Positions 4,137 through 39,316 of a DNA stretch of 64,000 nucleotides are shown piece by piece (position 1 is the first letter of the stretch; every line of letters begins with the position of its first letter). Below the pieces are notes generated by a model that made no database searches, was not told the origin of the DNA, and saw nothing but the letters and a program-made list of their open reading frames with translations. Position numbers and translations under genes: made by a program. The stretch is from a virus, in IMG/VR virus record IMGVR_UViG_3300045988_109025, positions 16,804 to 80,803 of that record; one strand, 5' to 3'.

Positions 4137-4430
4137 CTACTCTTCTTTTCCAGACTGCTTAATAAGCTGATTTACATAAGTACTTAATCCGGCAACGATA
4201 ACGCCTTGTGTAATTGCGGTAAACAGTGCCATTGCAGCTTCCTGTGAACCGGAAACTGTAGATGTTGCAAAAACATAAAGACCGCAAATTAATACACCAA
4301 GAATTCCTAAAATCATTGGAATAAATTTGTCAGAAATATTCTCTGACTTTTTAATCATTTCTCCGATAAAATAAAGAAATACAACGACAATAAGTAATTC
4401 TGGCTTTACATAACTTAAAATCTGATCCAT
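4137..4430 (-). CDS. holin-family small membrane protein
   Basis: 97 aa with 2-3 hydrophobic helices (LLIVVVFLYFIG, IPMILGILGVLICGLYVF, ITQGVIVAGLSTY) and a charged C-tail (NQLIKQSGKEE). This pattern resembles Gram-positive phage holins. GAGGTGA RBS. Confidence 0.55.
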   Translation of the reverse strand: MDQILSYVKPELLIVVVFLYFIGEMIKKSENISDKFIPMILGILGVLICGLYVFATSTVSGSQEAAMALFTAITQGVIVAGLSTYVNQLIKQSGKEE

Positions 4431-5969: not shown

Positions 5970-8798
5970 TTAACTGTATCTCTTAAAAAACTGAATCACT
6001 TCAACGTATGCAAGAGGTACATTGTAATGTGTTACCCCACAAAAAGTACTTATTTCATTAACTTTCAATGCGTTTTCATCATTATCTACAGAGTGATGCC
6101 CTCCGGTTCCATTCGGCATGGTTCTTAATTCTCCAACACATCCACCATTTTTCAATGACTGAATATATCCTTTGCTCATTTCATACGATACTGTGGTGTC
6201 GTCTGGCGCAATAAATATTTTTGTTGGGACAATGCAATATCTATTTTGCGTTGCCATTTTCTTGCCTTGCGCATTATAATCTCCGCTAATAGGGTATTCG
6301 ACCATTTCTGATGCAGAAATGCCAATTACTCCTCTCCAAGCTGGATTGTGACCCAACAGCTTATAAGCATTATCACGAATATACTGCTTATACTCGTCTG
6401 TTTTTTTATATAATCTCTCTGTTGCTTTATCGTATGGTGTATCAAGCACCCCATTACTGTCAACCGAAAAGCCTAAATCGTCTGCATTATTTTTTCTTTC
6501 ATTTGGATAATATCCCAATCCGTCACAAAGCATATCAAGCTCCGGGGCTAGTGGACAACAAGCCTTGATATGCAAATCGTTTTCGTAACACATATTAATA
6601 GCTTGCAACCCCCCAAGAGATTTTGAAATGACGTAAATTCTGTTTATATCTATGTTGTAATTTGCACAAGCCCATTTGATACCTTGCTTAATTGCAGCCA
6701 TATTAGTGGGATTCCCCCACTGACAACTACCTGTAGTAGTATACTTAGATGTATTGCCATTGATATCAATGATAGCAAATCCTTCATCTTGCAAATACTG
6801 AATATAATCCATATAATACTTTGAAAATTCCGTATCATTTCTATCAAGATAATCACCACTTCCATGTGCAAAATAAATAAGTGGTACTTTATCTCCTACC
6901 GATGAATAATTTGGAGGCAACCTTAATAATGCTCCAGTATAATATGGTTTTGTGTCCACTTCAACATTTGAACCGTCATAATCCAAACCTTTATTCCCAT
7001 AAAATTGAAAAGTGAAAGGCAATGTATCGTATCCATCTCTTTCATTATATGAGAAATCAATTTCCCTTAAATTTTCAAATTTAATACTACCAGTCCAGTT
7101 TGTGTTATGGTCAGATGCAAATTTTACATAACGCGTTCTTGCATCTATAAGATACGAGGAATTGTTTGTCAAAACTGTATTTTTGATAAACTCTTTATTG
7201 GTGTTATACTCATAACAAAGTAAGCTTCCCTCAAAAGATGGAGTATAAGTTGTATCAACATTGACTTTAATAAATTTCGGTGTGACTTTTTTATAAGTAG
7301 ACCTTTCATATTTTCCAGAATCATCAAGTGTACCAAAATCAAGAATTGTTTTCAGTGACAATACACAACTTTCTGACAGATTATCATTAATATCTGCAAT
7401 AGTAGCCAACTCGGTTTTTGCTACAATATTGAAATAACGAGAATCAATGTTAACAGTTTTTGTTGTAAATCTTACATATATAGAATCAGATGGAATTTTT
7501 AAGTAACTATTGTTCTTGATATCGACCCTTCTTAAGAACGTTCGATTTGCATCATACAGATACATATACATGACAGCACTGGCGTTATTAACAGTATATT
7601 TTCCGCCGTTAATAAGTTTATAATAAATATATCCTGTTGCCGAAAATAATGGGTCATTAATTTCAGTTCCATTGTCGTCCAGTGTTTTTTCAGAAACAAA
7701 CAAAGTCAAAACATCGGTTGTTATCGAAAGTTCTGGAGTAATATTTGCAATCGAATCGAATCTATCATTTAATTCTTCATTGCTAACAATTTTATATTTG
7801 ATGTAAAATTTATTTTCATTTGATAACTTTGAATTTAATCTTACATATCTTGTTTCAGCATTTAATTGAATCAAGGAGTTTTCGGAATACTTCTTTATCG
7901 AAATGAATGTATTGTCTTGTTTATATTGTGCGATATACACGGAAACGCCACTTTCCATAATAACAATATAATTCTTTGACACATATTTGACATCAATTAA
8001 ATCTGTTACTCCATAAGTTGAACTTGGCGCAATGGAACCATCATCAGATATATCACCACTTTTCATAGCAAAAGTATTTCTTTTTTCTTTAGCGGCTATA
8101 TCATCTAAATCTTCCTTTAGCGAACCAATAGCTTCTCCCGTTGCTTTTGCTTCTGCAAGCCCGCCTTCTATAGTCAATGTAGTGTCTGGCTGTGATACAC
8201 TCTGGATGTCCTTAATAGCTTGTTCTTTTGCAGAATTTACATTTTGAATAGCTTCCGCAGATGTGTTTTTAGTAAGCTCCAAAAGCTGATTTATAACATC
8301 TTTTTCTTCCTGTCCTATCTGTGGTTGATCAATCTCGATACCCTCTAGCACTGGTACTTCCGCTATTGCGGTATTCCATTCAACACTAATATTTGAATCG
8401 GAATCCGTTTTAACAGCGCAAACAATAAAACGTACCGTTCCCATATACCTTGCTGCATTTCTTCCAATAAGCCAAGAAAAAGTTACATTTTCGCCATCTA
8501 CAGCTACATCATCACAAATGTATTGGTCTTTGATGGAAACATTAAAATCCACACTGCTTACGTTTTCGAAGTTAATTCTGACTGAAAATTTGGATAAATC
8601 AAGATTATCTCCTACAATTTTGGGACATGAAAATTTAATACGTTCTGCATTTTTGTCAGATTGTACCCCACCAACTACGATTGTAGAGGGCACGAAAATA
8701 ACCCTTGTCTTAGCATCAATTGTGCATATATCGGATTCTTCAGAAAGCAAATTAACATCTTCTTTTGTGCTCATAAGTAAATCAAGTGCTGTTGCCAT
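5970..8798 (-). CDS. fibre-like protein with three internal ~100-aa repeats and a C-terminal alpha/beta-hydrolase (esterase-like) domain
   Basis: 942 aa. The N-terminal ~150 aa resemble BppU-N/prophage tail-fibre N-terminal domains. aa ~160-240 look like a coiled coil. Three repeats end in RYVRLNS / IYVRFTT / RYVKFAS (aa ~243-575). The C-terminal ~320 aa carry HGSGDY, a nucleophile elbow VISKSLGG and GGHHS near the end. Confidence 0.65.
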   Translation of the reverse strand: MATALDLLMSTKEDVNLLSEESDICTIDAKTRVIFVPSTIVVGGVQSDKNAERIKFSCPKIVGDNLDLSKFSVRINFENVSSVDFNVSIKDQYICDDVAVDGENVTFSWLIGRNAARYMGTVRFIVCAVKTDSDSNISVEWNTAIAEVPVLEGIEIDQPQIGQEEKDVINQLLELTKNTSAEAIQNVNSAKEQAIKDIQSVSQPDTTLTIEGGLAEAKATGEAIGSLKEDLDDIAAKEKRNTFAMKSGDISDDGSIAPSSTYGVTDLIDVKYVSKNYIVIMESGVSVYIAQYKQDNTFISIKKYSENSLIQLNAETRYVRLNSKLSNENKFYIKYKIVSNEELNDRFDSIANITPELSITTDVLTLFVSEKTLDDNGTEINDPLFSATGYIYYKLINGGKYTVNNASAVMYMYLYDANRTFLRRVDIKNNSYLKIPSDSIYVRFTTKTVNIDSRYFNIVAKTELATIADINDNLSESCVLSLKTILDFGTLDDSGKYERSTYKKVTPKFIKVNVDTTYTPSFEGSLLCYEYNTNKEFIKNTVLTNNSSYLIDARTRYVKFASDHNTNWTGSIKFENLREIDFSYNERDGYDTLPFTFQFYGNKGLDYDGSNVEVDTKPYYTGALLRLPPNYSSVGDKVPLIYFAHGSGDYLDRNDTEFSKYYMDYIQYLQDEGFAIIDINGNTSKYTTTGSCQWGNPTNMAAIKQGIKWACANYNIDINRIYVISKSLGGLQAINMCYENDLHIKACCPLAPELDMLCDGLGYYPNERKNNADDLGFSVDSNGVLDTPYDKATERLYKKTDEYKQYIRDNAYKLLGHNPAWRGVIGISASEMVEYPISGDYNAQGKKMATQNRYCIVPTKIFIAPDDTTVSYEMSKGYIQSLKNGGCVGELRTMPNGTGGHHSVDNDENALKVNEISTFCGVTHYNVPLAYVEVIQFFKRYS

Positions 8799-8801
8799 GT
8801 T

Positions 8802-9119
8802 CTACCCCCTCTGTGATACTTTGGTTTTACCAGTAGTTATAATGTATTTTCCGTTATCTTTTACGCCAGTGACAGATACAGAAAAATAATCCCAAGTAAG
8901 GGATTCTGGCGGAATTTCACATTGATTGTTTTTCAGTATTACTGGGTATTCTCTTTCCATTCTCCAAAATGAAGCAGCTGTTTTACATCCGTTCCACTCT
9001 GGTGAAAAGATAAACAATGCTTTAAGATATCCAGTCGTGCCCTTTACCAGTCCAGAGAAATCACACTTGGGATCTGGATAAATTCTTTGATTATTTACAA
9101 TAAATCTTAATACTCTCAT
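8802..9119 (-). CDS. small fibre-associated protein (hypothetical)
   Basis: The track ORF is 8802..9311. The ATG at 9119 overlaps the upstream TGA (ATGA coupling). The 105-aa MRVLRFIVNNQRIYPDP...GYLKALFIFSPEWNG resembles N-terminal parts of Gram-positive prophage fibre proteins. Confidence 0.45.
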   Translation of the reverse strand: MRVLRFIVNNQRIYPDPKCDFSGLVKGTTGYLKALFIFSPEWNGCKTAASFWRMEREYPVILKNNQCEIPPESLTWDYFSVSVTGVKDNGKYIITTGKTKVSQRG

Positions 9120-9502
9120 GCAATCATCCTTTCTGCTCCAACAGGTGCTACATATGTGAATTGGTTTCCCAAAATATCTCTGGCTGTTCCAATCACGAAA
9201 TGGCCGTAGTCTGCCAGAATATTGCATACAAATTCCTCTGCATCCACCCAGTATCGTTTCTTGACCATGCGATGAAGTTCTGGTAATAGACCATAACTGA
9301 ACATTACGCAATGCCCTAATTCGTGGATAAATACACGGTTCAGAAGTTCTCCATGCAGGTTGTTTGCAATCGAAATAACACCAGTAGAATAATCAGATAC
9401 AGCAAGTGTTCTATTTCCTGTACGGTCAATCAAAACATTATCATTGGGAGAAACAAAGCGCACTCTCCATAAGTCCCCATTCATATAGAATTGTTTCAGC
9501 AT
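9116..9502 (-). CDS. small HExxH zinc-metallopeptidase-like protein (ImmA/SprT-like)
   Basis: 128 aa with FIHELGHCVMF (HExxH) preceded by ISIANNLHGELLNR, a context resembling the M78/SprT-type motif. Confidence 0.55.
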   Translation of the reverse strand: MLKQFYMNGDLWRVRFVSPNDNVLIDRTGNRTLAVSDYSTGVISIANNLHGELLNRVFIHELGHCVMFSYGLLPELHRMVKKRYWVDAEEFVCNILADYGHFVIGTARDILGNQFTYVAPVGAERMIA

Positions 9503-9525: not shown

Positions 9526-9560
9526 AAAAAAGCCCCTGCCGCACTACTGCAACAAGGGCT
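9526..9560 (-). terminator. intrinsic terminator after the low-complexity operon
   Basis: The minus strand reads AAGCCCTTG..CAGGGGCTTTTTT: a GC stem followed by a T6 run, just downstream of the stop at 9576. Confidence 0.6.
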
Positions 9561-9575
9561 TAATCAATATTGTAA

Positions 9576-10208
9576 TCATGTCATCTGCTGAACTAAACGG
9601 CTCAGGTCAGTTTTCATCTGCTGTCTGAGCGCTGCATCTGCATCCGACCACATTTCCGTAAGGTTACGAATAATATCTGATGTGTATTCTTTCATGGAAT
9701 CATCCATTTTTCTCTTGGATTCAGAATCCTTAGAATCATGATAGTGTCTACGATTCTCATCGTATCTATCATAGGATTCGCCATATCTGGACTTCTTCCA
9801 ATTCATATTCATACCATCATTTTCCATATCACTACGATCTGGATGATATCCCATGCGGTACATATTGCGCTCAAACTCTGGATTGTTTAAATACTCATCC
9901 ATCCAGTCATCATCCTGCATATACAGATACGGTCTATAGCCTTTTCTGGTTCCCCTACCTTTTGGAGCGAAACGCCCATTTGAATAGCGGTAACGGTCAT
10001 ATCCCATGCGTCCAAGATACTTTTCTTCCTGTTCGCATTCGTCCATAGCTTCTACGATTCTGTAATCTTTATCTGCACAAATCGCGCACTTTACGGATTC
10101 CATGCAGTCTTTCAAATCATCCCAATCTTGAGCACTGAGATTGTCGAAGCCATGTGCCTTGGCTTTTTCCATAGCCCATTTTCCCATTTCCATTGCAACT
10201 TTATGCAT
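9576..10208 (-). CDS. D/R/Y/M-rich low-complexity protein (hypothetical)
   Basis: 210 aa. The middle is dominated by RYxY/GY/DR/M repeats (GRMGYDRYRYSNGRF, RMGYHPDRSDMENDGMNMN). Its start overlaps the upstream stop (TAATG). Confidence 0.6.
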   Translation of the reverse strand: MHKVAMEMGKWAMEKAKAHGFDNLSAQDWDDLKDCMESVKCAICADKDYRIVEAMDECEQEEKYLGRMGYDRYRYSNGRFAPKGRGTRKGYRPYLYMQDDDWMDEYLNNPEFERNMYRMGYHPDRSDMENDGMNMNWKKSRYGESYDRYDENRRHYHDSKDSESKRKMDDSMKEYTSDIIRNLTEMWSDADAALRQQMKTDLSRLVQQMT

Positions 10209-10633
10209 TACAGTGCCCCCTTTCTAACAGCCTGCGTAACAGGTGCTTCTGTCGTTGGGGCTGTACCATTAATTGCTTTCAAATTGTTGCTCGGACTACA
10301 AGCCGGATTTCCTAACATCTTGAATACTCCGCCAGTTGCACTTGTAGCTACTCTAGTTGCGTACTTCGTTCTGGTTCTTATTCCACAAGCCGTAATCTGT
10401 GCACAGCAACGATTTTCTAGCGGATACAAAGTTGTTCCTGTTCCTATCTGAATCATTACCGGAGCAGTAATTGTAGTGGCTTCTGGTATACTTTGTGCAA
10501 CAACAATACAATATTTCTCTCCATTGTTGTAACTGCCTGCTGGGAGTGTGATTACAAGATTACTTCCTGTAAACGCAACAGCTTGGCTTATTACAAGACG
10601 GTTGCAGAGCTTACAAACATTTTTACAACTCAT
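10208..10633 (-). CDS. Cys-rich protein (hypothetical)
   Basis: The track ORF is 10208..10648. The ATG at 10633 (MSCKNVCKLCNRLV...) has a GAGAGGTAG RBS. It has 10 Cys, including CKxxCKLC, RCC and AC. Confidence 0.6.
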   Translation of the reverse strand: MSCKNVCKLCNRLVISQAVAFTGSNLVITLPAGSYNNGEKYCIVVAQSIPEATTITAPVMIQIGTGTTLYPLENRCCAQITACGIRTRTKYATRVATSATGGVFKMLGNPACSPSNNLKAINGTAPTTEAPVTQAVRKGAL

Positions 10634-10712
10634 ATTTCTACCTCTCAATCAAAATAAGAGGTGAGCCGCAACCCACCTCTTAGAATTTAGTCAACCTCTA
10701 AGGGTGAGTTAC

Positions 10713-11513
10713 TTAGCAACAACCGTTACCATATGTATTACATCCTGCGTATGCATATGGGGCTGGAACCTGGAATGCAGGAATCGGAGCCGGGTTGATT
10801 GCATTGATTAATCTCTGAGCCTGTGCATACATCTCTGTTGTAAGCAATGCAGACTGGCGATCCTGGGATGCAGCACGTTTCAGATCAGAGTTCTCTGCCT
10901 GTAATGTTGCAATCTTATCGTTAGTCAGGAAGTCAAGGATTGCTCTTGTGTTGCTGTTCTGGTTTTCCAGAAGATCTCTTGTGTTGTTGTTCATTGTGTT
11001 CTGGAGAGCACAAGTGTTGGTAGCAAGGTTGTAGTTGATACCCTGTATAGCTTCTCTTGTTTCACAACAGCAGCTTGCAAGTTGAGACTGTAAAGCATTT
11101 GTATTCTGCATACCGGCTACAGTATCAGCATTGATTGCCTGCTGAACGCCGTTGAAGCCTTGAAGCATTCCGACATTCATACCATTAAAGCCACTCTGCA
11201 TGGTATTGTTAAGAGAATATGTGCTGTCACAGATACCCTGCTGAATACCTCTGATACCATTTTGAATATCATTAAGGGCGAATTCCTCATTAATATCTGA
11301 ACGGGTAGCCCATCCTTGGAAACCTGCACCATTTGTACCGTTTCCACCATTGCCACCCCAGCCGCCAAAGCCGCCGAAACCGCCCCAGCCAAAGATAAGC
11401 AATATTATAATCCACCATGCCCAGCCACCGCCAAAGCCATAGCCTTCATCGGCACGGTTATTAGAGCCGCTTAATACAGCGACATCGCTTGCTGATAATC
11501 CACCATTCATCAT
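10713..11513 (-). CDS. Gly/Trp-rich single-pass membrane protein with N/Q-rich ectodomain and C-terminal Cys cluster (hypothetical)
   Basis: 266 aa. It contains GYGFGGGWAWWIIILLIFGWGGFGGFGGWGGNGGNG, then an N/Q/T-rich region with CCC, and ends AGCNTYGNGCC. Confidence 0.6.
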   Translation of the reverse strand: MMNGGLSASDVAVLSGSNNRADEGYGFGGGWAWWIIILLIFGWGGFGGFGGWGGNGGNGTNGAGFQGWATRSDINEEFALNDIQNGIRGIQQGICDSTYSLNNTMQSGFNGMNVGMLQGFNGVQQAINADTVAGMQNTNALQSQLASCCCETREAIQGINYNLATNTCALQNTMNNNTRDLLENQNSNTRAILDFLTNDKIATLQAENSDLKRAASQDRQSALLTTEMYAQAQRLINAINPAPIPAFQVPAPYAYAGCNTYGNGCC

Positions 11514-11590
11514 AGTGATTACCTCCTTATTGATTTTTGTAATTTATACAAAATCAAAAGACCGCGGCTCTTTTAATTATTGTAGCGAAT

Positions 11591-11830
11591 TTATTTTATT
11601 CCAAACTGGTTCTTAACCTGCGACAGTATATCGTCTGGATTAATATTTCTTTCTTTACAAAGATTTCTTGCAAGTTTTTCAATTCCTGCATTATCACCTT
11701 TTTCCATCATGTTAATTGCATTGTCAATTACAGGATTATTTCCAGATTGCTGTTTCATCATATTGATTATGGCTTGTTGAGGATTCCCTCCACCACGTAT
11801 CATCTGCATAAGTTGCATTGGATTCATCAT
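11591..11830 (-). CDS. hypothetical small M/N/Q-rich protein
   Basis: 79 aa. Its ATG overlaps the upstream stop (11827-11830), and it is co-oriented in the same operon. Confidence 0.5.
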   Translation of the reverse strand: MMNPMQLMQMIRGGGNPQQAIINMMKQQSGNNPVIDNAINMMEKGDNAGIEKLARNLCKERNINPDDILSQVKNQFGIK

Positions 11831-12315
11831 CTCTGTTTACCTCCATTCTGCTTGGGTTCCGATGTTCCCGACATTTGTGTCGGGAACATACTCTTTATTT
11901 CGGAAATCTCAGAACAAACATCGTTTCGAAGCTGATTAAACATAGCTTCTATGTCAATCGGTTTTTCTTCTGCCTTTGGTTGCTGTTGTTCTTCCGGATT
12001 TATAAGCCGATAAACAAAAATTCTACTTCTTCCATCTGCCTGTAATTGTTTTCTATATATTTCTGTACCGTCAGTTTTTGGATAATAAACAGGGCTTCCA
12101 GACATATCTACATCTTTTGCCTTTACAGTATCAATGCCATCAACCATCTGTCCTTGCAACATGGGGATTTGTGGCACTTGTGGCATTGGTTGTTGAATTT
12201 GTGCCTGTCCGTATGGCATTGCCTGCTGATAACTATTCTGCAATTGTGCTAATCTATCTTGATACGGCTGTATTTGTTGAAATGGTTGCGCAAAATACGG
12301 ATTACCATACTGCAT
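11827..12315 (-). CDS. Q/P-rich protein (hypothetical)
   Basis: 162 aa. The N-terminal ~55 aa are Q/P/Y-rich (QPFQQIQPYQ, QIQQPMPQVPQIPMLQGQ). GGGAGG RBS. It is the first gene after the ATGGCGT boxes. Confidence 0.6.
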   Translation of the reverse strand: MQYGNPYFAQPFQQIQPYQDRLAQLQNSYQQAMPYGQAQIQQPMPQVPQIPMLQGQMVDGIDTVKAKDVDMSGSPVYYPKTDGTEIYRKQLQADGRSRIFVYRLINPEEQQQPKAEEKPIDIEAMFNQLRNDVCSEISEIKSMFPTQMSGTSEPKQNGGKQR

Positions 12316-12373
12316 ATCTCAAACCTCCCTTGTTTTTATAACTATATTTTACAATAATAAGAGGTTAATTAAC

Positions 12374-12402
12374 ACGCCATGATAACGCCATAAATACGCC
12401 AT
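12374..12402 (-). promoter_or_regulatory. three ATGGCGT boxes phased at 11 bp upstream of a promoter-like TAAAAT
   Basis: The minus strand reads ATGGCGTATTTATGGCGTTATCATGGCGT. The plus-strand ACGCCAT copies are at 12374, 12385 and 12396. The boxes lie directly after the stop of the HTH gene and ~60 nt upstream of the 12315 start. Confidence 0.5.
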
Positions 12403-12405
12403 TTT

Positions 12406-12645
12406 CTATGAATACAAAGAAAAGCCCCGACAATACATCGGGGCAACTTTCATAATTTTCTTTTTTAATTTTCTGTTTATGCGGTCTACGGTTCTCGTGC
12501 TGTAGCCCATGATTTCTGAAGCTTCTGCAAGCGTTTTTTCTTCATAAACACGCAATCGGAATAACTCCTTTTCTCTGGAATCAAATCCAGCTTCACGCAA
12601 ATAGAAGATTCTTTCATCTTCTGAAAAGTCTTTATAATCATCCAT
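12406..12645 (-). CDS. small sigma-70 region-4-like HTH regulator
   Basis: 79 aa. KELFRLRVYEEKTLAEASEIMGYSTRTVDRINRKLKKKI looks like a region 4.2 / LuxR-type HTH. Confidence 0.6.
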   Translation of the reverse strand: MDDYKDFSEDERIFYLREAGFDSREKELFRLRVYEEKTLAEASEIMGYSTRTVDRINRKLKKKIMKVAPMYCRGFSLYS

Positions 12646-12677
12646 TCCACTGTCCTCCCTGTTAGTGGAATCAATAT

Positions 12678-12989
12678 TTACACCGGGAAAATGCCTTTTA
12701 GGGCAAAGCCTAAAACAATACCAATTATGCCAGTTATGACATAAGCAATTATTTTGTCCTGTAACTTTCCTGGCTTTTCCATGAGTGATTTTAAATTGTC
12801 GTTCATTTCGTCAACTGTATCCTTAATGTGTCCCAGGTCATTGTTGTATAAAGCAATTTTCTGTTCCAGCACATTGATACGTTCAAAAAAAACTCCATCC
12901 CTTTTGGAATGCTTTTCTTTCATCTCATGGACTGCACTTTCCAATTCTTTTAAGCGGTGTTCGTTGACGCACTCGTGTTCACATCCCAT
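12678..12989 (-). CDS. XhlA-like coiled-coil membrane protein
   Basis: 103 aa with an N-terminal Cys pair, a long coiled coil and a single C-terminal TM helix (IIAYVITGIIGIVLGFALKGI). This is the same architecture as PBSX XhlA. Confidence 0.5.
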   Translation of the reverse strand: MGCEHECVNEHRLKELESAVHEMKEKHSKRDGVFFERINVLEQKIALYNNDLGHIKDTVDEMNDNLKSLMEKPGKLQDKIIAYVITGIIGIVLGFALKGIFPV

Positions 12990-18417: not shown

Positions 18418-20112
18418 CTATCTCCTTCCCCACATAAAATTTTTGGTTGCTTTTACTTCTGCAAATCTTTTGCCGGCAAGCGTTATTGCAAGCTGCGTAA
18501 CTCCATCGGCAGCGTCATCATGTTCATTATCGCCAATATATACGAATGTAGTTAATTCATCCATAGCCTTTTGATACTGTTTATCTTGATATTTCGGAGC
18601 CAAAAATATAAAATTTTGCTTAACATCCCCAGAATATTGATTTATTTTTTCTTTTTTTGCTTGTTTTGAAGGTGCTTTTGTACTTGTCGTGCTGCAAGCG
18701 TATTTATGTTCTTTCAAGCGTTCGTTTACATAATAGGCATACATATCTCCACCATTATTTGCTTCAAAATTAATGGATTGAATATTATTTCCCATGATTC
18801 TTCCAACAACTAATGGCAATGTTCCTTCTTTTGGTGCTGTGCTAAAAATCCAATCATAAATATATACATCTCCATTTTCGTATTCTGCACCCACTGGCAT
18901 TGATAAGCTATCGCCACCACCCCACGCAACATCGCAAGCAGAAACATTTTTAACAAATCCACCTTCTGGAAGAACGCCGTTATAATATCTCAATTCATCA
19001 GCTGCAAACACAATTCCTTCACGCAAAAAGGGCTTTTGCTGATATTTAGCTTCCCATTCGTTAGCGTCTAGCCTAGCTTTCATATCAACATAATATTTTG
19101 TTGAAAATCCAACGCCATATTCATAATCGAAATTGGATTCACCATCATCGTTCAAAGCTGGAATTTTTCTAAACCGATACATTGGATTATCCCGATTTAG
19201 CTTCTCAATTTTTCCAAGAGGATCATATAAATTCCATCTGGTTCCAACCATAAGTTCTCTTGCGCCATCAATCTTACGGTCAACCATCTTATTCAAATAT
19301 TCTTGATATGTATTTTCTAATCGAGTAGGGCTTAATGAATGTTGCCTGTCTCTTACAAGGTCATCCACGTACAAATACCCATCAGAAGAAATATCAACGG
19401 CACCTGTCCAAGTACCTTCAATACCACGGCAAGTCATTGTTGCAAATCGGTCTGGCTTGTCCAGGTTTATTTCAAAATCATCAGCACTCTGTTTTTGAAG
19501 TTTCGATTGCGGAAAAATTTCACTGTAGTTGTATTCCTGTGTATTAATGAGGTTAAGAAGTTCTCCGTAAAATCCTTTTGCCAGTTTTCCAGAATGACCA
19601 CCCATGGCGCTATGACTATTCGGTCTTTTTCCCATTATCCATGACATAAAGAAAATACACATAGTGGATTTTCCAACACGGCTTGGAAGTGATAAACCGT
19701 AAAACTCTATCTTTCTTTCTTCCAAATCTTGTAGGTCTTTGGCTACCACATGCAGTGTTTTTTTTCGTGGAATATAAAATTTCTTGCTGTCCGGTCTATT
19801 TTTTTCCATATAAAGCAAGTAACTTTCAAATAAATGTGGCGCTTCCAGTAGCAAATACTGCCAGTAGATATCGTCAAAATTACCACTTCCAGTTAATGCA
19901 GCACACTTCTCTGCCATGTTATGTGAGTATTGACTTACTTTCATAGCCATTTTCCGTGCTTCTTGATTCTTGTTGAAAGGAAGGTCAATATTCATATTTA
20001 AGAGCAAATCAAGGCAATCTTTTTGATTTTGATAGATTGTCATGTCGCTACTGATAATCTGATTTAGGACTGTCCGATACCATTCAAGCGAACCTTCTGT
20101 AATTTTTCCCAT
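18418..20112 (-). CDS. terL: terminase large subunit
   Basis: 564 aa. Walker A-like LPSRVGKST, an acidic Walker B-like YLYVDDL and a C-terminal nuclease-like half. It lies upstream of the portal. Confidence 0.85.
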   Translation of the reverse strand: MGKITEGSLEWYRTVLNQIISSDMTIYQNQKDCLDLLLNMNIDLPFNKNQEARKMAMKVSQYSHNMAEKCAALTGSGNFDDIYWQYLLLEAPHLFESYLLYMEKNRPDSKKFYIPRKKTLHVVAKDLQDLEERKIEFYGLSLPSRVGKSTMCIFFMSWIMGKRPNSHSAMGGHSGKLAKGFYGELLNLINTQEYNYSEIFPQSKLQKQSADDFEINLDKPDRFATMTCRGIEGTWTGAVDISSDGYLYVDDLVRDRQHSLSPTRLENTYQEYLNKMVDRKIDGARELMVGTRWNLYDPLGKIEKLNRDNPMYRFRKIPALNDDGESNFDYEYGVGFSTKYYVDMKARLDANEWEAKYQQKPFLREGIVFAADELRYYNGVLPEGGFVKNVSACDVAWGGGDSLSMPVGAEYENGDVYIYDWIFSTAPKEGTLPLVVGRIMGNNIQSINFEANNGGDMYAYYVNERLKEHKYACSTTSTKAPSKQAKKEKINQYSGDVKQNFIFLAPKYQDKQYQKAMDELTTFVYIGDNEHDDAADGVTQLAITLAGKRFAEVKATKNFMWGRR

Positions 20113-20187: not shown

Positions 20188-21141
20188 TTATTCAGCATTC
20201 TCATCAGCTGTCATATCTCTTGTATCTACGATAGTAGAAGTGTTACTTCCTTGAATTTTTGGTACTTCACCATTCCATTTATCAATTTTCTGTTTTTCAA
20301 TCAGTTCGGGAGTAAGAGATTCTGCAATTTTTCTATTTGCTTCTGCTTCGGCTTCTGCTTTAATCTTAATTGCTTCTGCTTTACCTTCTGCATCAATTTT
20401 AGCTTGTTCTGCCTGGATAGATGCTTTTTCTTTTTCCTGTTCAGCTGCAATCAGTGCAACTTCTTTATCTTTATCGGCTTGTACTTTCGCTGTTTTAGCT
20501 TCAATGTTAGCAAGTTCAAGCTCCTGTTGAGCGTTCACTTTCTTCTGAATTGCAGCCTGTGTTTCATCATCAGTGGAAATGGAAGTAAAGTTTACTGTAT
20601 CAATAATAATTCCGTATGGCTCAAACTTCTGTTTAAGATATTCGTCAAGTGCTTCATTCAGTTCCTGGCGTTTATCACCGAAAACATCTGTTACTGGATA
20701 CTTCGCAGTTACTTCCTGCGTCCATGCTTTCATCTTAGGCTTAATAAAAGTATTTTTCACAGATTCCCCGGATTGACCTTTGAACTGAGTAAATACATCA
20801 GTTACTCTGCTCTGATCGAATTTATAAGAAAATTCAAGGTCGACTTGAAGCGATTTTCCATCTGCCGTTGGTGTCTTGAAACTTTCATCTTTTGGAGAAT
20901 CGCCCTTATCCTCAGATGTAAGATAAGACTGCTCGATTCCAACGGAATACAGTGAAGTTTTTACTGTTGGTGAAATCACATGCCATCCCTGTGTAAGTAC
21001 ATTCTTAGAGATTCCTCCGTTCATTTTGTACTCTACCGCAATGTAACCAGCCGGAACTCTCACACTGCACTTTGCAACACATATAAGTCCTGCAATGATT
21101 ACAACAGCTAATCCAATTCCACCTAAAAGTCCTTTTTTCAT
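20188..21141 (-). CDS. SPFH/Band-7 (prohibitin/stomatin-like) membrane protein
   Basis: 317 aa with an N-terminal TM helix, an SPFH-like core (VPAGYIAVEY...FEPYGIIIDTVNFTSI) and a long A/E/K coiled coil. Confidence 0.75.
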   Translation of the reverse strand: MKKGLLGGIGLAVVIIAGLICVAKCSVRVPAGYIAVEYKMNGGISKNVLTQGWHVISPTVKTSLYSVGIEQSYLTSEDKGDSPKDESFKTPTADGKSLQVDLEFSYKFDQSRVTDVFTQFKGQSGESVKNTFIKPKMKAWTQEVTAKYPVTDVFGDKRQELNEALDEYLKQKFEPYGIIIDTVNFTSISTDDETQAAIQKKVNAQQELELANIEAKTAKVQADKDKEVALIAAEQEKEKASIQAEQAKIDAEGKAEAIKIKAEAEAEANRKIAESLTPELIEKQKIDKWNGEVPKIQGSNTSTIVDTRDMTADENAE

Positions 21142-33236: not shown

Positions 33237-34949
33237 TTATAGCGCTAAAAGGTACTTATATTTGTAAAATACCATATGTTGTGTCTTGATGCAAGTTTTC
33301 CTACTAAATATCTTGTGTTGTTCTGGATGTAGAGTTAAAATCATATCGTCAGAACGGCGCAAGGGAAACCCCCATTTTTCAAGGCTTCCAGACCTCAATT
33401 GAAATGTTAGTGTTGCACATGTAGCCGCCAACGGTTCCACGGTAATTTTTTCAAAAAGTTCATTGACAATCTGCCTGTTAATGTCTTTTGGAGTAACGCC
33501 TTTGAACTTTTCTAACTGTTCTTTAATAGCACTTAATTGTATTTCTGCTGGCTCTGGACTTTTAATATTTTGTAGTTCTCGAATATGGCTTTCTGTCTGT
33601 TTTATCTGTTTTACATATTCTTTATTTCTTGAAACAAATTCATCATCAGATATTTTGCCATCTAAATTATATTCCAGTATTTTTTCACGCTTTTGTTTTA
33701 ACAGGTCAATCTGTTTTTCAAGTCGTGAGATTTCGTTTTTATTGTCTGGAATGTTTTTGATCGAGGACTGCAAAATTTCAAAATATTCCTCCAAAATGCT
33801 ATCAATGTTTTCAGAAGATTTATTTATTAATTCTGCAATTACTTCTTTCAGTTCTGATTCTGCCAGTCCAAATGAATCACATGAAGCTGCTCCGTTTTTT
33901 ATTTTATAGCTGCATACCCATCGAACATCTTCTTTTCCTCTGATATAATGTTGCTTCATCCAGTATGGAGCTCCGTCATTTGCGCAGAAAAGTTTTCCAG
34001 TGAAAATATTTTCGTTTTTAAAAGAGGTTCTTCTTGATTTTATGGCTTCTCCACGTTCTCTTAAATATGCGTTTGCCTTTTCCCAGGTAGTTTCATCAAT
34101 GATCTGCGGTACTCTGGAACCATCATCCTTAAACATTATCCATTCTGACTGCGGAAGAAATTCTTGTTTCTTGGTGAACATATCGACAACCTTTACTTTT
34201 CCTCCGCAATAGTATCCTTTGTATTTTGGATTCCGAATAATATTTTTTATGACATCCCGGTTGATTTTCCCGCCTTTGAAACTTCTGTATCCCATATCCC
34301 AGAGTTTTTTTTCGATTCTTGGCGTAGATATTCCGGAAGCATAATCTCGAAAAATCATTCGAACCATGTCTGCTTCTTCTGGAATCAGTTCGAGCTTCCC
34401 TTGATTGTTTGAGTATCCATACATTCTGTGCCCGAGAACAACACCGTTTTTGATCGACTGTGCGTGTCCAAACTTTACTCTTGAAGAAAGCTTGCGGATT
34501 TCGTCCTGCGCTACCCCAGCCATAATAGTAAGTCGGAACTCACTATCATCATCAATAGTGTTAATTCCATCGTTTTGGAACCACACGCATACGCCGTAAG
34601 ATAACAATTCCCTGGTATATTGGATGCTGTCAAGAGTATTTCGTGCAAATCTTGAAATTTCTTTCGTAATAATCATGTCAATTTTTCCGAGCTTTGCATC
34701 TCTGAGCATTCTTTGAAATTCTTCTCTTTTATCCGCATGTATTCCAGAAATACCATCATCAATGTAAGAACCAGCAAACTTCCATCTGTTGTTAGAATGT
34801 ATCAGCTCTTCAAAATGTTCCTCCTGGTGCTTAATGGATGCTTGCTGTTCAACTTTTTCAGTAGAAACCCTGGCATAATAAGCAACATTTAGTTCAATGT
34901 CGTAAATAGAGCAATTTCTTAATTTTTCTCTGACATAATAAATATTCAT
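33237..34949 (-). CDS. int: large serine recombinase (integrase)
   Basis: Internal ATG at 34949 (MNIYYVREK...). Resolvase catalytic region YARVSTEKVEQ...ITKEISRFARN, a recombinase domain, a Cys-containing zinc-ribbon region and a long coiled coil. Confidence 0.85.
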   Translation of the reverse strand: MNIYYVREKLRNCSIYDIELNVAYYARVSTEKVEQQASIKHQEEHFEELIHSNNRWKFAGSYIDDGISGIHADKREEFQRMLRDAKLGKIDMIITKEISRFARNTLDSIQYTRELLSYGVCVWFQNDGINTIDDDSEFRLTIMAGVAQDEIRKLSSRVKFGHAQSIKNGVVLGHRMYGYSNNQGKLELIPEEADMVRMIFRDYASGISTPRIEKKLWDMGYRSFKGGKINRDVIKNIIRNPKYKGYYCGGKVKVVDMFTKKQEFLPQSEWIMFKDDGSRVPQIIDETTWEKANAYLRERGEAIKSRRTSFKNENIFTGKLFCANDGAPYWMKQHYIRGKEDVRWVCSYKIKNGAASCDSFGLAESELKEVIAELINKSSENIDSILEEYFEILQSSIKNIPDNKNEISRLEKQIDLLKQKREKILEYNLDGKISDDEFVSRNKEYVKQIKQTESHIRELQNIKSPEPAEIQLSAIKEQLEKFKGVTPKDINRQIVNELFEKITVEPLAATCATLTFQLRSGSLEKWGFPLRRSDDMILTLHPEQHKIFSRKTCIKTQHMVFYKYKYLLAL

Positions 34950-35030
34950 AGTGCATTTCTCCCTTAATAAACAGGGAGTGGAATCATATAAAGTATAACA
35001 CCTCATATAAATCCACTCAATACATTGTCG

Positions 35031-35216
35031 TTACTTTCTAATGCTGATTTCAGCTTTAATTTTATCTCTTGTTTTCTCATCTATCAGACCAAATGAGAAC
35101 ATTCTTTCGTTTATGGCATACAATATAGCTTTTTCCATTAATTTTCCCTCCATATAATTATCTCGTTTTAAACGCTGTTTTTCTTTATCTTTTGTATGCC
35201 CTATAATTTCTACCAT
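35031..35216 (-). CDS. hypothetical small protein
   Basis: 61-aa track ORF immediately upstream of the recombinase. Confidence 0.4.
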   Translation of the reverse strand: MVEIIGHTKDKEKQRLKRDNYMEGKLMEKAILYAINERMFSFGLIDEKTRDKIKAEISIRK

Positions 35217-35267
35217 TATTCTCTTTTGAACGATTCTGCACTATTTTAAGTACACAATTATCACGTT

Positions 35268-35480
35268 TTACAACAAATCAAAGATGTTTACCTGTCCATC
35301 AATCTGAGATTCTTCCAGATTGTAAAATTTGCAAGCTATATAATCTGGGTTCCAATCAATTTCCAGCTCATATTGCAGGCACTGCGGATGCTTACCGTTA
35401 CGGAAGAACCTACAATGAGAACAAGTATGCTGATAAGCTGTACCTCCAGACCGCTTATACATTTCGCTTATCTTCCTCAT
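35268..35480 (-). CDS. hypothetical Cys/His-containing protein
   Basis: 70-aa track ORF (HTCSHCRFF...HPQC). Confidence 0.45.
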   Translation of the reverse strand: MRKISEMYKRSGGTAYQHTCSHCRFFRNGKHPQCLQYELEIDWNPDYIACKFYNLEESQIDGQVNIFDLL

Positions 35481-35719
35481 AAAATCACTCGCTTTACTCT
35501 TGATTTTCCTCTCGATTTCTTCTTGAAGATACCATTTTTAACACAATCCCTCGGATCACATCCTCTGCTATGTTCTTCGATTAAGATATAATCACAAGTT
35601 GCACTTGCGCTCCATGCATTTTCAGTTCTGCTGTAATAGTCACATTTCGAACATTGTCTACGCTTTAAATTTGCTATTTCAGCCCCTTTTAATTCTCTCC
35701 ATGGTTTTCTATCTGGCAA
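35477..35719 (-). CDS. hypothetical Cys-rich protein
   Basis: 80-aa track ORF (CSKCDYY...CDY...GCDPRDC). Its ATG overlaps the upstream gene. Confidence 0.45.
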   Translation of the reverse strand: MPDRKPWRELKGAEIANLKRRQCSKCDYYSRTENAWSASATCDYILIEEHSRGCDPRDCVKNGIFKKKSRGKSRVKRVIL

Positions 35720-36249
35720 TTTTCCGCACCTCCCAATCTGGCATTATCTATAATTTTTAAAAGGTCTGGACTTAGTTTTCTTCGTTCTTGTTCTCTTTGC
35801 ACTTCTGCCCGATATGTACGCTGAAAATTTGACTGGACTACGCTCAGCCATTTTCCATCTACATTCCCTGATTTCGCCCATTCTTCTAACTGCCCCGGAC
35901 TTGATACAGCTTTTTGAACTATTTCTGGAAGTTTAGAAAATTCTTCTTCCGCATGGTATATAGAGTTCCAAATTGCCCTTGATACCAGATTCCAAGCTTC
36001 TGTTTCGTTCAGTTCGTCAGACTGTGGTGCAAGGCTTTGTGCGCATTTCCTTAATGCTGCTATTGATGGCTCTTTCCATTCAGTCTGCATATATTTCTTT
36101 AATCCGAAACTTAAAAGCTTGTAATCTAGGTCTTTAAGGAGACCATACCAAGTATCAAAAGCATATTGATCTGGAAGAAACGATGGAGAAGTGTACACAG
36201 CTTTCATTGCTTTTACCAGTACCGCCCATTCTTCCCTTGTCATACCCAA
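35689..36249 (-). CDS. putative helicase-loader/G39P-like replication protein
   Basis: 186 aa, directly downstream of the replisome organizer. The N-terminal W/L-rich helical domain resembles G39P-type loaders. This is a weak call. Confidence 0.4.
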   Translation of the reverse strand: MGMTREEWAVLVKAMKAVYTSPSFLPDQYAFDTWYGLLKDLDYKLLSFGLKKYMQTEWKEPSIAALRKCAQSLAPQSDELNETEAWNLVSRAIWNSIYHAEEEFSKLPEIVQKAVSSPGQLEEWAKSGNVDGKWLSVVQSNFQRTYRAEVQREQERRKLSPDLLKIIDNARLGGAENCQIENHGEN

Positions 36250-37160
36250 TTGTCCACCTCGCTTACCCTGTTTTGGATTTTCTCCATGTAGCTTTGAGGC
36301 TTGTTGCCGGATTTATCAAGATAGTTCCCTTCAAATACCTTTGCAAAGTTACCGGGCTTTAAGAACCAATCGAAAGTTATCATCCAGCCTTCTTTGTTCT
36401 GCCCTTGTAAGAAGCTGCTATGGCGAATGTTTTCAATGGCTTCTAATATATCGCCCATATGGTTCTGACGGATTCTGGCTTTCACTGCTTGTTCTCGTTT
36501 TGATGTCATTCTTTTTACAGGGTTAATACCAAATTCTTCCAGAGTATTCCATTCATCAATGATTCGTTGGACGTCAGTCTGACGAATAGTATCTTTAGAT
36601 ACTATTAAATCATTCTCTTCTTCTATTTCTTTTTCTTTATTATCTAATTCTTTATTATCTAGTTCTTTATTATATACTTCTGCCGAGCTAACGTTAGTTT
36701 TACTGTTAACTTTACCGTAAAGTTTACTGTTAGTTTTACACTCTATTTTGTCTTTCTGCTTTTTTCGATATTCTTGCATATAGTTTCGCATATATTGGCT
36801 TTTTTGCTCAATTTTATCAAGATTTTGATATTTTCCCCAGTTCGGAATTGTGTAAACGCCGGAAACAATTTCGATCATTCCGTAGTTCTCAAATGTTTTT
36901 AACGCTAATCGAACTGTATTAATGTCTCTTCTGAATACTGTTGCCAACATTTCATCTGTATATGCAATTTTATCGTTTAAAATAAAAACACCACTGTTGT
37001 TATTTTTCCCGGCTAAGCACAACAATTTAAACCAGATTACGATAATGCTGTCCGCACTTGGCAAATTTTCAATTAGCATTATTTTTTCATCATCAAAAAT
37101 GTCTGAACATATTTTTATCCATTTTACATCGCTTGCCAATTTTAAAATTCCTTTCTCCAA
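36240..37160 (-). CDS. phage replisome organizer (DnaD-like)
   Basis: 306 aa. The N-terminal WIKICSDIFDDEKIMLIENLP...IWFKLLCLAGK is typical of the replisome-organizer N domain. The C-terminal part is DnaD-like, and there is an internal NKELDNKELDNKEKE repeat. Confidence 0.75.
   Translation of the reverse strand: MEKGILKLASDVKWIKICSDIFDDEKIMLIENLPSADSIIVIWFKLLCLAGKNNNSGVFILNDKIAYTDEMLATVFRRDINTVRLALKTFENYGMIEIVSGVYTIPNWGKYQNLDKIEQKSQYMRNYMQEYRKKQKDKIECKTNSKLYGKVNSKTNVSSAEVYNKELDNKELDNKEKEIEEENDLIVSKDTIRQTDVQRIIDEWNTLEEFGINPVKRMTSKREQAVKARIRQNHMGDILEAIENIRHSSFLQGQNKEGWMITFDWFLKPGNFAKVFEGNYLDKSGNKPQSYMEKIQNRVSEVDNWV
36636..36680. repeat. 3 tandem 15-bp repeats (TTTATTATCTARTTC) inside the organizer gene; candidate origin iterons
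   Basis: Copies are at 36636, 36651 and (degenerate) 36666. Confidence 0.4.
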
Positions 37161-37182
37161 TTCCTGGCTTTTTCAAAAGTGT

Positions 37183-38304: not shown

Positions 38305-38362
38305 GATTAATCCTCCCATTTTAATTTTTGTCAAATAAATCAAATTATATGAGTTTTATGTG

Positions 38363-39316
38363 CTATTTCTTGATTACCTTCATGTTTTTATTCCAACTTC
38401 CAGAAATTGTTCCGTCTGGATGAATTATAAATTCTCTACAAACACTATTATCTTCCGCTTTCTCTATTTCGCTAAGCATTTTCATGTTCGAATAGCTAAA
38501 GGTGATTAAAGTATCTTTGTATTTCCATATTTCATACACATAATAATCTTGAATTGTTTGCTCGATAAATTCAAAATGATTGTATGCGTATTCAAGTATT
38601 TTGTTATATAATTCTTCTTTTTCATCGTATTTAATTCCGCTTTTTTCACTTAGCTTCATAAGTTTTCTGAATGATAAATCATCTGCAAAAGAGTATGCAT
38701 CAATCATATTTAATACATCTTCGATTGTGTTCGCGTCGCACAATACGCATTGTAATCTCATTTTGGTCTTTAATAATTTGCCTTTAATACGTTCCAGATC
38801 AACCAAAGATGGCATACATGTTCCAAAAATTTCATTATTTTTCTTATCAGATATAGCATGTCTGCTAATGTCTACAAAATCAAACAGTCCATCAATTTCT
38901 TTAATATGATTTTCTAAGTATTTCCCATTTGTATTAATCGTCAAAAATTTAATATCGTGTTTTCCTAAAACTTCACACAATTTAGTAAATTTTTCAAATA
39001 GCAGTGGCTCTCCACCTGTTACAGATACGGAATACAATATTCCTTCTTTTTCCATTTCTGAAAGCATTTCATCAACTTGCATTATAAAATACTCTGCATT
39101 CTCGCAACGTTCTGCGTTTTGTTCGACACAGAATGAACATTTGGCATTGCACTTATCTGTTATTTTCAAATGCAAGTGCCATAACCATTCGTTCTTTTCT
39201 ACTAAAATCCGATGACCAAATAAGTTGACTTCCATCTTGTCGTCATAATTTATTGGTAATCTTTCAACATTGCACTTGTGAATGTAATCTTTTATGCTTT
39301 TATTTTGTACAAACAT
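38363..39316 (-). CDS. radical SAM enzyme
   Basis: Internal ATG at 39316. It has CNAKCSFC (CxxxCxxC) preceded by HLHLKITDK, plus VSVTGGEPLL. The start overlaps the MazG-like stop. Confidence 0.75.
   Translation of the reverse strand: MFVQNKSIKDYIHKCNVERLPINYDDKMEVNLFGHRILVEKNEWLWHLHLKITDKCNAKCSFCVEQNAERCENAEYFIMQVDEMLSEMEKEGILYSVSVTGGEPLLFEKFTKLCEVLGKHDIKFLTINTNGKYLENHIKEIDGLFDFVDISRHAISDKKNNEIFGTCMPSLVDLERIKGKLLKTKMRLQCVLCDANTIEDVLNMIDAYSFADDLSFRKLMKLSEKSGIKYDEKEELYNKILEYAYNHFEFIEQTIQDYYVYEIWKYKDTLITFSYSNMKMLSEIEKAEDNSVCREFIIHPDGTISGSWNKNMKVIKK

Follow-up and report, generated by a model that had tools for sequence, protein, structure and literature searches.

What are genes for proteins of such extreme amino acid composition doing inside the morphogenesis operon of a phage, after its capsid and putative connector genes? 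The question is raised by the virus record IMGVR_UViG_3300045988_109025, of which a stretch of 64,000 nucleotides (nt) was analyzed; this whole stretch is called the window, and all window coordinates refer to it. An original prediction made from the letters of the window had described a self-regulated operon of low-complexity proteins, with a cross-linked coat-type matrix as its possible product. Comparison with related loci firmly supports the reading of the block as one copy of an accessory cassette that is real, autonomous, equipped with a regulator and widespread, occurring in thousands of gut phages whose hosts belong to two bacterial phyla; a membrane anchor and a putative peptidase are part of it. 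The cassette comprises eight minus-strand genes between 12989 and 9116, each with a GGAGG-type ribosome-binding site (lengths in amino acids, aa):

12678..12989, minus strand: XhlA-like protein, cassette gene one, 103 aa; N-terminal coiled coil and C-terminal membrane helix
12406..12645, minus strand: HTH (helix-turn-helix), 79-aa stand-alone sigma-70 region-4 protein; putative operon activator
11827..12315, minus strand: QP, Q/P/Y-rich protein, 162 aa; phrog_21718
11591..11830, minus strand: MNQ, Met/Asn/Gln-rich helical protein, 79 aa; translational coupling to the QP gene through an ATGA overlap
10713..11513, minus strand: GW, Gly/Trp protein with one hydrophobic helix, the hallmark of the cassette, 266 aa; phrog_16490
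10208..10633, minus strand: CysA, beta-rich, 141 aa; 8 Cys, among them a Cys-Cys doublet
9576..10208, minus strand: DRY, D/R/Y/M-rich protein, 210 aa; start overlaps the CysA stop (TAATG)
9116..9502, minus strand: MP, small metallopeptidase-like protein with HExxH motif (FIHELGHC), last cassette gene, 128 aa; phrog_1233

The seven open reading frames (ORFs) of the original prediction, from the XhlA-like gene through DRY, lie where it had placed them, with the strand and ribosome-binding sites as listed. The extreme compositions also hold: QP contains 16.7% Q and 9.3% P; MNQ 15% N, 11% M and 10% Q; DRY 12.4% D, 9% M, 9% R and 7.6% Y; and GW 13.5% G, with six Trp and eight Cys and the C-terminus AGCNTYGNGCC. 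The 141-aa protein, by contrast, had been credited with ten Cys and has eight. The five ORFs from QP to DRY had been described as co-translated; only two pairs overlap, QP/MNQ and CysA/DRY. The other junctions are gaps of 32-90 nt, of which two contain hairpins (12424-12444 and 10655-10682).

Conservation of the cassette and its interchangeable slots

The same gene order recurs in Dulem virus 35 and in Butyrivibrio virus Ceridwen, and a shorter form is present in Clostridium perfringens phage XP41-N3. A scan of species-representative bacterial genomes yielded 80 loci, nearly all in Clostridia (Lachnospiraceae, Oscillospiraceae, Acutalibacteraceae, Ruminococcus, Anaerotruncus colihominis DSM 17241, Enterocloster), with a few in metagenome-assembled genomes of Bacilli. 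The proposal of an autonomous unit is thus borne out by an identical gene order in more than 80 loci at different genomic positions. The canonical order appears to be a small tail-anchored membrane protein (XhlA-like, or one that we call TM93), HTH, optionally a Cys-His-Asp protein, QP, MNQ, GW, a Cys-Cys beta protein, DRY and, optionally, the HExxH peptidase. Components were mapped by BLAST onto 85 loci carrying GW, many of which are cut by contig ends:

QP: 70/85 loci
MNQ: 69/85 loci
DRY: 63/85 loci
HTH: 42/85 loci, upstream of the QP gene in 41 of the 42
CysB, the BclA_C-like slot protein: 50/85 loci
CysA, the type found in the window: 29/85 loci
Cys-His-Asp protein (phrog_3754): 45/85 loci
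MP: 18/85 loci, after the DRY gene in most of them

Co-occurrence was tested in the 55 loci with enough flanking sequence. CysA and CysB were mutually exclusive (p=1e-11), the Cys-His-Asp protein and MP were found together in 0/55 loci (Fisher p=1.7e-6), and each peptidase type occurred with each slot protein. These exclusive pairs imply that the cassette has two slots with interchangeable, non-homologous occupants. No homology between CysA and CysB was detected by hhalign (probability 0.5%), nor between the slot families and the beta proteins of Bacteroidota phages by the same method. Both slot families of the Firmicutes, and also the beta protein of the Bacteroides phage, have a conserved Cys-Cys doublet; gp24 of the crAss-like phage cr52_1 has none.

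Conserved synteny also extends the cassette beyond the terminator after DRY, at which the original prediction had closed it. A hairpin followed by a run of T stands between DRY and the peptidase gene in 7/8 peptidase-carrying loci, and from this arrangement together with the synteny the HExxH gene at 9116-9502 is a genuine member despite the preceding terminator. Its alternative, the Cys-His-Asp family, has invariant D-C, H and D residues. The label "C39 peptidase" was considered for this family and set aside: it had only the D-C...H...D pattern and "putative peptidase" annotations in Bacillus phages in its favor, and Pfam does not support it. The phrog_3754 gene is also found solitary, in Geobacillus phage GBK2 and in the early regions of Tsamsa-like Bacillus phages, where it is annotated "putative peptidase" (L090 6968-7363; L091 4980-5369; numbers with L are our genome designations), and is therefore not specific to the cassette.

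Two further observations concern the slot gene. A homing-endonuclease-like gene (~280 aa, with a Cys-rich N-terminus and a YGGRGI motif) has repeatedly been inserted in the gaps flanking it, between GW and the slot gene in one genome (L119 14047-14886) and after the slot gene in Ceridwen (L002 9040-9903). The gap between GW and the slot gene, equivalent to 10634-10712 of the window, reaches 0.7-1.4 kb in several bacterial loci.

A reduced core in Bacteroidota and crAss-like phages

Bacteroides phage C3_41T2LP encodes a clear GW homologue of unchanged architecture, with the Gly/Trp-flanked helix, the CCC motif, a PAPIPAY segment and a C-terminal GCGCGC; next come genes for a beta protein, a 77-aa protein resembling DRY and a HELGH peptidase. 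In the crAss-like phage cr52_1 the gene for a LysB/FtsL-like membrane protein precedes those for DRY (gp22), GW (gp23) and a beta protein (gp24). When profiles of the Firmicutes families were run against these proteins, a small search set, GW gave 2.5e-36 and 5.5e-22 and DRY gave 1.9e-5 against cr52_1 gp22; the weaker matches were 2.7e-3 for the CysA-type profile and 9e-4 for MP. A reduced core, consisting of GW and DRY and, with weaker matches, of the beta protein and the peptidase, is shared beyond the Firmicutes. Bacteroidota hosts are not known to sporulate, and neither is Butyrivibrio fibrisolvens; the presence of GW and DRY homologues in Bacteroidota and crAss-like phages is therefore a strong argument against a function specific to sporulation. 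In C3_41T2LP, the C-terminal helix of a neighboring gene product has a match to a PHROG labelled "virion structural protein".

Mobility and dispensability

As in morons, the insertion site varies among phage genomes, with at least four contexts recognized. In Dulem virus 35 the cassette lies between minor capsid and scaffold genes, in Ceridwen directly after holin and endolysin, in XP41-N3 (short form) between lysis and recombination genes, and in the window after the capsid and putative connector genes. The nearest large upstream neighbor is Phage_min_cap2 in 11/58 loci and a cell-wall hydrolase in about 13/58; downstream neighbors include integrases (at least six), scaffold proteins (five), homing endonucleases and anti-repressors. 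In one phage (L093) the cassette is directly beside the integrase and the phage attachment site attP, and the integrated copy forms the prophage edge beside host metH.

The window phage belongs to a very common gut siphophage lineage of ~80 kb, with over 400 relatives in IMG/VR. In a set of 62 close relatives, with capsid proteins of at least 91% identity, 59-62 carry the cassette genes. Two genomes show the block to behave as an indel: in L173 MNQ through MP are missing, and in L166 QP through MP are replaced by a tyrosine recombinase to which the HTH gene is fused in frame (L166 11922-13064). Both retain intact structural genes, and the operon is dispensable, assuming that these contigs represent viable phages. 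The HTH-recombinase fusion may be the footprint of a cassette exchange. Within the lineage the variation of the XhlA-like protein, HTH and DRY follows that of the capsid protein (r about 0.9-0.98); MNQ (with alleles of ~30% or 90-100% identity), GW, CysA and MP are decoupled from it, which points to recombination inside the cassette.

Next to the cassette lies a second variable element:

8802-9119: gene for a 105-aa protein, phrog_19695
5970-8798: gene for a 942-aa protein with a C-terminal BD-FAE esterase-like domain, forming an optional pair with the former

This pair is present in only 12/62 close relatives; in the others MP abuts the 130-aa "adaptor" gene, or the pair is replaced by a 743-aa BNR_2 (sialidase-like) or a 608-aa protein. 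It is a separate, optional fibre-like insertion in the head-tail joining region, and it looks like a swappable, enzyme-tipped neck or head fibre. The insert of ~7 kb described in the original prediction does contain the cassette, but is composite, since the pair is separate and optional. The names connector, adaptor and terminator, which had been given to the neighboring genes, were assigned from position only and have no PHROG match.

Regulatory elements

Five elements of the cassette are of regulatory interest:

12424..12444, minus strand: intrinsic-terminator-like hairpin (GCCCCGA..TCGGGGC plus a run of T) closing the membrane-protein/HTH unit
12374..12402, minus strand: three ATGGCGT boxes, putative HTH operator; copies at 12396-12402, 12385-12391 and 12374-12380, with exact 11-bp spacing
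12341..12368, minus strand: promoter-like site, either an extended -10 element TG-n-TAAAAT at 12346-12353 or TTAACC-16-TATAGT; consensus match only
10655..10682, minus strand: terminator/attenuator-like hairpin between the GW and CysA genes; the equivalent gap has a hairpin and a run of T in 41/63 loci
9530..9561, minus strand: intrinsic-terminator-like hairpin with a run of T after the DRY gene

The phased boxes had been noticed before and are present with the spacing given; the heptamer occurs five times in the whole window, and three of these occurrences are the boxes. The terminator proposed at 9526..9560 was likewise recovered, as the last hairpin of the list. The 3' end of the HTH ORF, its last 13 codons, is read out of the 12424-12444 hairpin, directly after which the boxes come. 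The TG-n-TAAAAT element starts 22 nt beyond them, so placed that the box centers fall near -38, -49 and -60 relative to the promoter-like site, where a good -35 element is absent. Such a position would be typical of an activator that replaces the contact made by sigma region 4.

This layout is not peculiar to the window. A hairpin and a run of T follow the 3' end of the HTH gene in 28/29 other loci, and a small one-helix membrane protein (XhlA-like, TM93 or other) is encoded immediately upstream of the HTH gene in 26/40; a membrane protein with HTH, then a terminator, then the operon, appears to be the general arrangement. Three or four direct repeats stand straight after the HTH gene in other loci, nearly always with 11-bp spacing and with a sequence specific to the locus (units ATGACCT, AATACAG, TTGACG, TGATAG, GTGATACTT and CACTTTT), many of them -35-like. 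In about 13/41 loci the repeats are clearly non-random, the observed score being reached in 0-2 of 100 shuffled controls. In many loci the gap between GW and the slot gene carries two conserved hairpins (TTTTCCCCGxxxGGGTGATT..., then a GC-rich stem with a run of T). A locus-specific repeat beside its own regulator gene has the look of a co-evolving regulator-operator pair, which supports the notion of a self-regulated operon; the phased repeats and conserved hairpins are observed, and binding and activation by HTH we infer from them.

Protein families and predicted features

All components were scanned against Pfam, NCBIfam, PHROGs and PADLOC. In Pfam only Sigma70_r4 scored above its cut-off, XhlA remained below, MP gave weak matches to M78 and DUF6782, and no match was found for QP, GW or DRY; NCBIfam added nothing. 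PHROG families were matched by the XhlA-like protein (phrog_937, labelled only "hemolysin") and by QP, GW and MP (phrog_21718, phrog_16490 and phrog_1233), the latter three carrying no assigned function. The original prediction had recognized no family for any of the five ORFs; Pfam has none for QP, GW, CysA or DRY, but in PHROGs families without assigned function exist for QP and GW.

The XhlA-like designation is supported by phrog_937 (4.5e-13) but falls short of the Pfam threshold (PF10779, 1.7e-4, 22.1 bits against a cut-off of 34.7). The assignment of HTH to the sigma region-4 type is sound, with 29.8 bits for PF04545 (4.1e-7) against a cut-off of 24.1. Its match to TIGR02937 (8e-9) covers region 4 alone, at profile positions 116-163, and sigma-70 region 2 is not present in the 79-aa protein; lacking region 2, HTH is no sigma factor.

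QP (phrog_21718, 5.8e-19) shows in alignment a Tyr/Gln/Pro low-complexity N-terminus, a conserved beta domain of ~60 aa, a C-terminal amphipathic helix and a basic tail. MNQ is short, Met-rich and helical, and is always encoded just upstream of GW; related copies match phrog_22984. A likeness of MNQ to STI1/Sgt2-type chaperones was considered and rejected, being a compositional resemblance with no Pfam match. CysA has 4,544 homologues, no Pfam family and seven invariant or near-invariant Cys. DRY, with 1,467 homologues, none of them named, has helical ends around an Arg/Tyr/Gly/Asp low-complexity core. MP contains a HELGH motif and matches phrog_1233 (2.4e-9); its scores for Peptidase_M78 (13.9 bits against 22) and DUF6782 (13.7 against 27) are below the cut-offs.

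GW (phrog_16490, 1.2e-68) has more than 7,867 homologues after clustering at 90%, a number capped by the search, and forms 2,731 clusters at 50% identity. The best 150 matches are nearly all 130-330 aa long, and from this narrow range GW is apparently not fused to other domains. An N-tail of ~30 aa is followed by 13-15 hydrophobic residues, ~25 residues of Gly with Phe, Trp and Tyr, ~160 residues predicted to form long helices, a Pro-rich segment and a Cys cluster. The alignment shows C95, CCC148-150, C168 and the C-terminal CC to be invariant, along with many Gly, aromatic and Gln positions. The N-tail is net acidic in 302/309 homologues, with Lys and Arg almost absent. Because the tail is acidic and a positive flank is missing, the positive-inside rule favors insertion with the N-terminus out and the C-terminus in, an orientation in keeping with QP, MNQ, the slot proteins and DRY having no signal peptide.

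No signal peptide was predicted on any soluble cassette protein, and no collagen-like repeats were found. Homologues of GW, CysA and DRY are all annotated "hypothetical protein", with no meaningful Pfam assignment. When GW, both Cys families and the Cys-His-Asp family were compared with the PDB by sequence and by profile, nothing real was returned; the matches to designed armadillo-repeat proteins were dismissed as compositional. The products nevertheless do not deserve to be seen as orphan low-complexity proteins: GW, CysA and DRY represent large and strongly constrained families with invariant Cys and aromatic positions.

Possible functions of the cassette

The explanation that we regard as the best candidate, if a tentative one, is that the proteins form a complex switched on by the regulator, which would be anchored to the host membrane on its inner face and would act late in infection on the envelope. 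HTH would bind the three boxes upstream of the extended -10 promoter and switch the operon on, and the hairpin after GW together with the terminator after DRY would grade its expression. GW would sit in the cytoplasmic membrane through its one short hydrophobic helix, acidic N-tail outside and the long helical, Cys-bearing domain inside, where QP, MNQ, the Cys-Cys beta protein and DRY could assemble on it. MNQ is a possible holdase for the hydrophobic segment of GW, and one of the two interchangeable peptidases would process a component. A role at the membrane or envelope is suggested by the XhlA-like first gene, the frequent adjacency to endolysin genes, the several small membrane proteins and the dispensability of the operon; the exclusivity of the peptidase slot lends further support, if taken to mean that a peptidase is a required part. 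The most likely role is then in the timing or efficiency of lysis or in the entry of competing phages, neither as an essential part of the virion nor as a spore layer, and a link to lysis through XhlA is possible.

A more specific idea, which we think quite unlikely, is that the phage builds a coat-like or condensate-like layer: a regulator-switched, peptidase-processed scaffold at the inner membrane face, with the Gly/aromatic, Cys-rich GW and its Gln/Pro/Tyr-rich, Met-rich and Arg/Asp/Tyr-rich low-complexity partners as possible parts. The spore coat or the cornified envelope would be a loose comparison. If it were true, phages of Bacillota and Bacteroidota would use a scaffold layer to govern the envelope's state as infection ends.

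Several points weigh against the membrane-anchored complex and call for caution. No characterized homologue was found, and to our knowledge five soluble low-complexity proteins of this kind have no counterpart in known lysis or exclusion systems. The orientation of GW is deduced from the absence of a positive-inside signal, the promoter matches only a consensus, and both "peptidases" are without a match above a curated threshold. AlphaFold2 models were poor (pLDDT, predicted local distance difference test, of 47 for GW from 37 sequences and 48 for CysA from 29), because the alignments were too shallow and too similar; Foldseek against the PDB with the CysA model gave noise only, and at such a pLDDT the comparison is uninformative. 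L166 and L173 are metagenomic contigs. Adjacency to endolysin may only mean that cargo usually collects where the late operon ends, and the position inside a structural operon, here and in about a fifth of loci, would also fit a role in the virion.

That virion role, although unlikely, has to be taken seriously. It would make the cassette a module for head or neck decoration, for cement, or for proteins packaged and ejected with the DNA, in which MNQ keeps GW soluble until it is inserted in the membrane of the next host and the peptidase matures GW. The location in the morphogenesis operon of the window and between Phage_min_cap2 and the scaffold gene in 11/58 loci speaks for it, as do the cr52_1 copy near virion structural genes, the match of the C3_41T2LP neighbor and the sub-threshold similarity of CysB to BclA_C, a fibre head of TNF/C1q-like type. 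Elsewhere, however, the cassette follows lysis genes, adjoins the integrase and attP, or stands among recombination and replication genes; it is predicted to have its own regulator, operator and terminators; L166 and L173 have intact structural genes and no operon; and the searchable literature yielded no virion proteome data. The cassette could also be cargo for lysogenic conversion or superinfection exclusion, expressed from its own promoter in lysogens and in late lytic growth and remodelling the membrane against DNA injection by other phages, which we consider possible but not probable. Many prophages carry the cassette in the classical cargo slot between endolysin and integrase or attachment site, L093 has it at the prophage edge, several of its proteins are membrane proteins, and the predicted independent regulator, promoter and terminators, the absence from L166 and L173 and the large serine recombinase of the window phage, which is probably temperate, all agree with such cargo. 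Less easily reconciled with it are the copies in crAss-like phages, which are mostly non-temperate, the eight genes as opposed to the one or two small proteins of known exclusion systems, and the absence of any PADLOC model match.

The cross-linked matrix of the original prediction, a coat- or exosporium-type layer on the cell, the spore or the virion, is improbable. Compositions rich in Cys, Tyr, Gly and Gln, the sub-threshold BclA_C similarity of CysB, mostly clostridial hosts among the Firmicutes and a small region-4-only regulator, which we take to recall GerE, would suit it, and the Cys-His-Asp protein might, speculatively, be a transglutaminase in principle rather than a peptidase. Against this, GW and DRY (and more weakly the beta protein and peptidase) have homologues in Bacteroidota and crAss-like phages and the full cassette is present in Ceridwen, a phage of Butyrivibrio fibrisolvens; the soluble components have neither signal peptides nor collagen-like repeats; CysA shows no BclA_C similarity, and the CysB profile does not find a solved BclA structure. 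Finally, extreme compositions and few Pfam matches could be taken as signs of chance ORFs in a non-coding or decaying insert, an explanation to which we give virtually no credence and which is refuted by conservation: thousands of homologues with invariant residues, strong ribosome-binding sites, translational coupling and an order conserved across phyla.

The membrane-anchored complex, or whatever the cassette proves to be, matters beyond the window. Once the XhlA-like and HTH genes are set aside, Pfam has no family for any component, and none carries a curated name or a known function. Solving the function of the cassette would annotate thousands of "hypothetical" genes of the gut virome at once. 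An eight-gene unit with its own regulator, common to phages of Gram-positive and Gram-negative gut bacteria and freely moved, must confer a general benefit, and may represent a new step between phage and host envelope, be it lysis control, exclusion or an intracellular scaffold. Cultured carriers are at hand in Butyrivibrio virus Ceridwen, the C. perfringens phages XP41-N3, CPD1 and CPQ4, and Bacteroides phage C3_41T2LP.

Other features of the window

Surrounded by head-tail and tail genes is a holin gene (Phage_holin_5_2/phrog_1129, 4137-4430) that lies at a distance from any endolysin of the window; Dulem virus 35 has an annotated holin at the equivalent place. Upstream of the portal gene, 18418-20112 encodes a 564-aa protein, probably the large terminase, whose counterpart in some relatives is 896 aa long with a LAGLIDADG_3 match (L087/L089 954-3644); the difference suggests a polymorphic insertion of an intein or homing endonuclease. 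Beside the packaging genes, 20188-21141 encodes a membrane-scaffold protein of Band_7 (SPFH/stomatin-like) type, which is conserved in relatives. The region at about 33237-39400 encodes a 589-aa large serine recombinase (Resolvase, Recombinase and Zn_ribbon_recom domains), which suggests a temperate lifestyle, together with Phage_rep_org_N, DUF4317, a 317-aa radical SAM protein and a MazG-like protein.

Comparison with known systems

No description of the cassette was found in the searchable literature, and none of the known systems considered (lysis cassette, exosporium proteins, defence systems, RiPP clusters, true sigma factors) accommodates it as a member. As a defence system it was rejected because PADLOC-DB 2.0 returned only coiled-coil noise at E>=0.003, and as a cluster for a ribosomally synthesized and post-translationally modified peptide (RiPP) or bacteriocin because no precursor, and no modifying enzyme or ABC exporter in or beside the cassette, was found.

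With the XhlA/XhlB/XlyA lysis genes of PBSX in Bacillus subtilis the cassette shares its first gene, an XhlA-like coiled coil with a C-terminal membrane helix, and about 13/58 other cassette loci directly follow an endolysin. In the window, however, no holin or endolysin adjoins, the holin gene being ~8 kb from the XhlA-like gene; the six downstream cassette genes have no counterpart in PBSX, and no cell-wall hydrolase or holin family was matched in Pfam or PHROGs among the cassette genes and those immediately downstream. GW itself resembles the class III holin T of phage T4 and the i-spanin Rz in architecture only, with a short N-terminal tail, a single helix and a large Cys-conserving C-terminal domain. 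It differs from them in having no similarity by sequence or profile (GW matched no holin or spanin family in Pfam, PHROGs or NCBIfam), no outer-membrane lipoprotein partner and hosts that are Gram-positive as well as Gram-negative, and the acidic N-tail and partners without signal peptides suggest that its large domain is cytoplasmic, opposite to T and Rz. A spanin reading was rejected, given the missing lipoprotein partner and the occurrence of the family in Gram-positive hosts.

The BclA and ExsY/CotY exosporium proteins of the Bacillus cereus group are likewise small and Cys-rich, and the slot after GW is filled in many cassette copies by a ~140-aa protein whose BclA_C similarity stays below the threshold (PF18573, 5e-7, 30.1 bits against a cut-off of 38 for CysB of Dulem virus 35; the slot protein of Ceridwen has no match). 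The likeness ends there: CysA belongs to another family without detectable similarity, collagen-like repeats are missing, the cassette also occurs in Bacteroidota phages, no window protein matched BclA_C or a coat or exosporium family in Pfam, NCBIfam or PHROGs, and the CysB family profile found no BclA chain in the PDB.

In form the regulator resembles stand-alone activators of the region-4 or LuxR/GerE type and sigma fragments that consist of region 4, being a 66-79-aa region-4 HTH beside -35-like direct repeats upstream of an extended -10 element; unlike these, it is paired in most loci with the gene for a small membrane protein. As a whole, the cassette behaves much as morons and lysogenic-conversion cassettes do, with its variable position, its own promoter-like site and terminators, its dispensability and its frequent place between the lysis genes and the integrase or attachment site. 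It is nevertheless far larger than these, comprising eight or nine genes, and has a regulator and a putative operator of its own; its conservation as a block extends over phages of two bacterial phyla, and crAss-like phages carry it as well.

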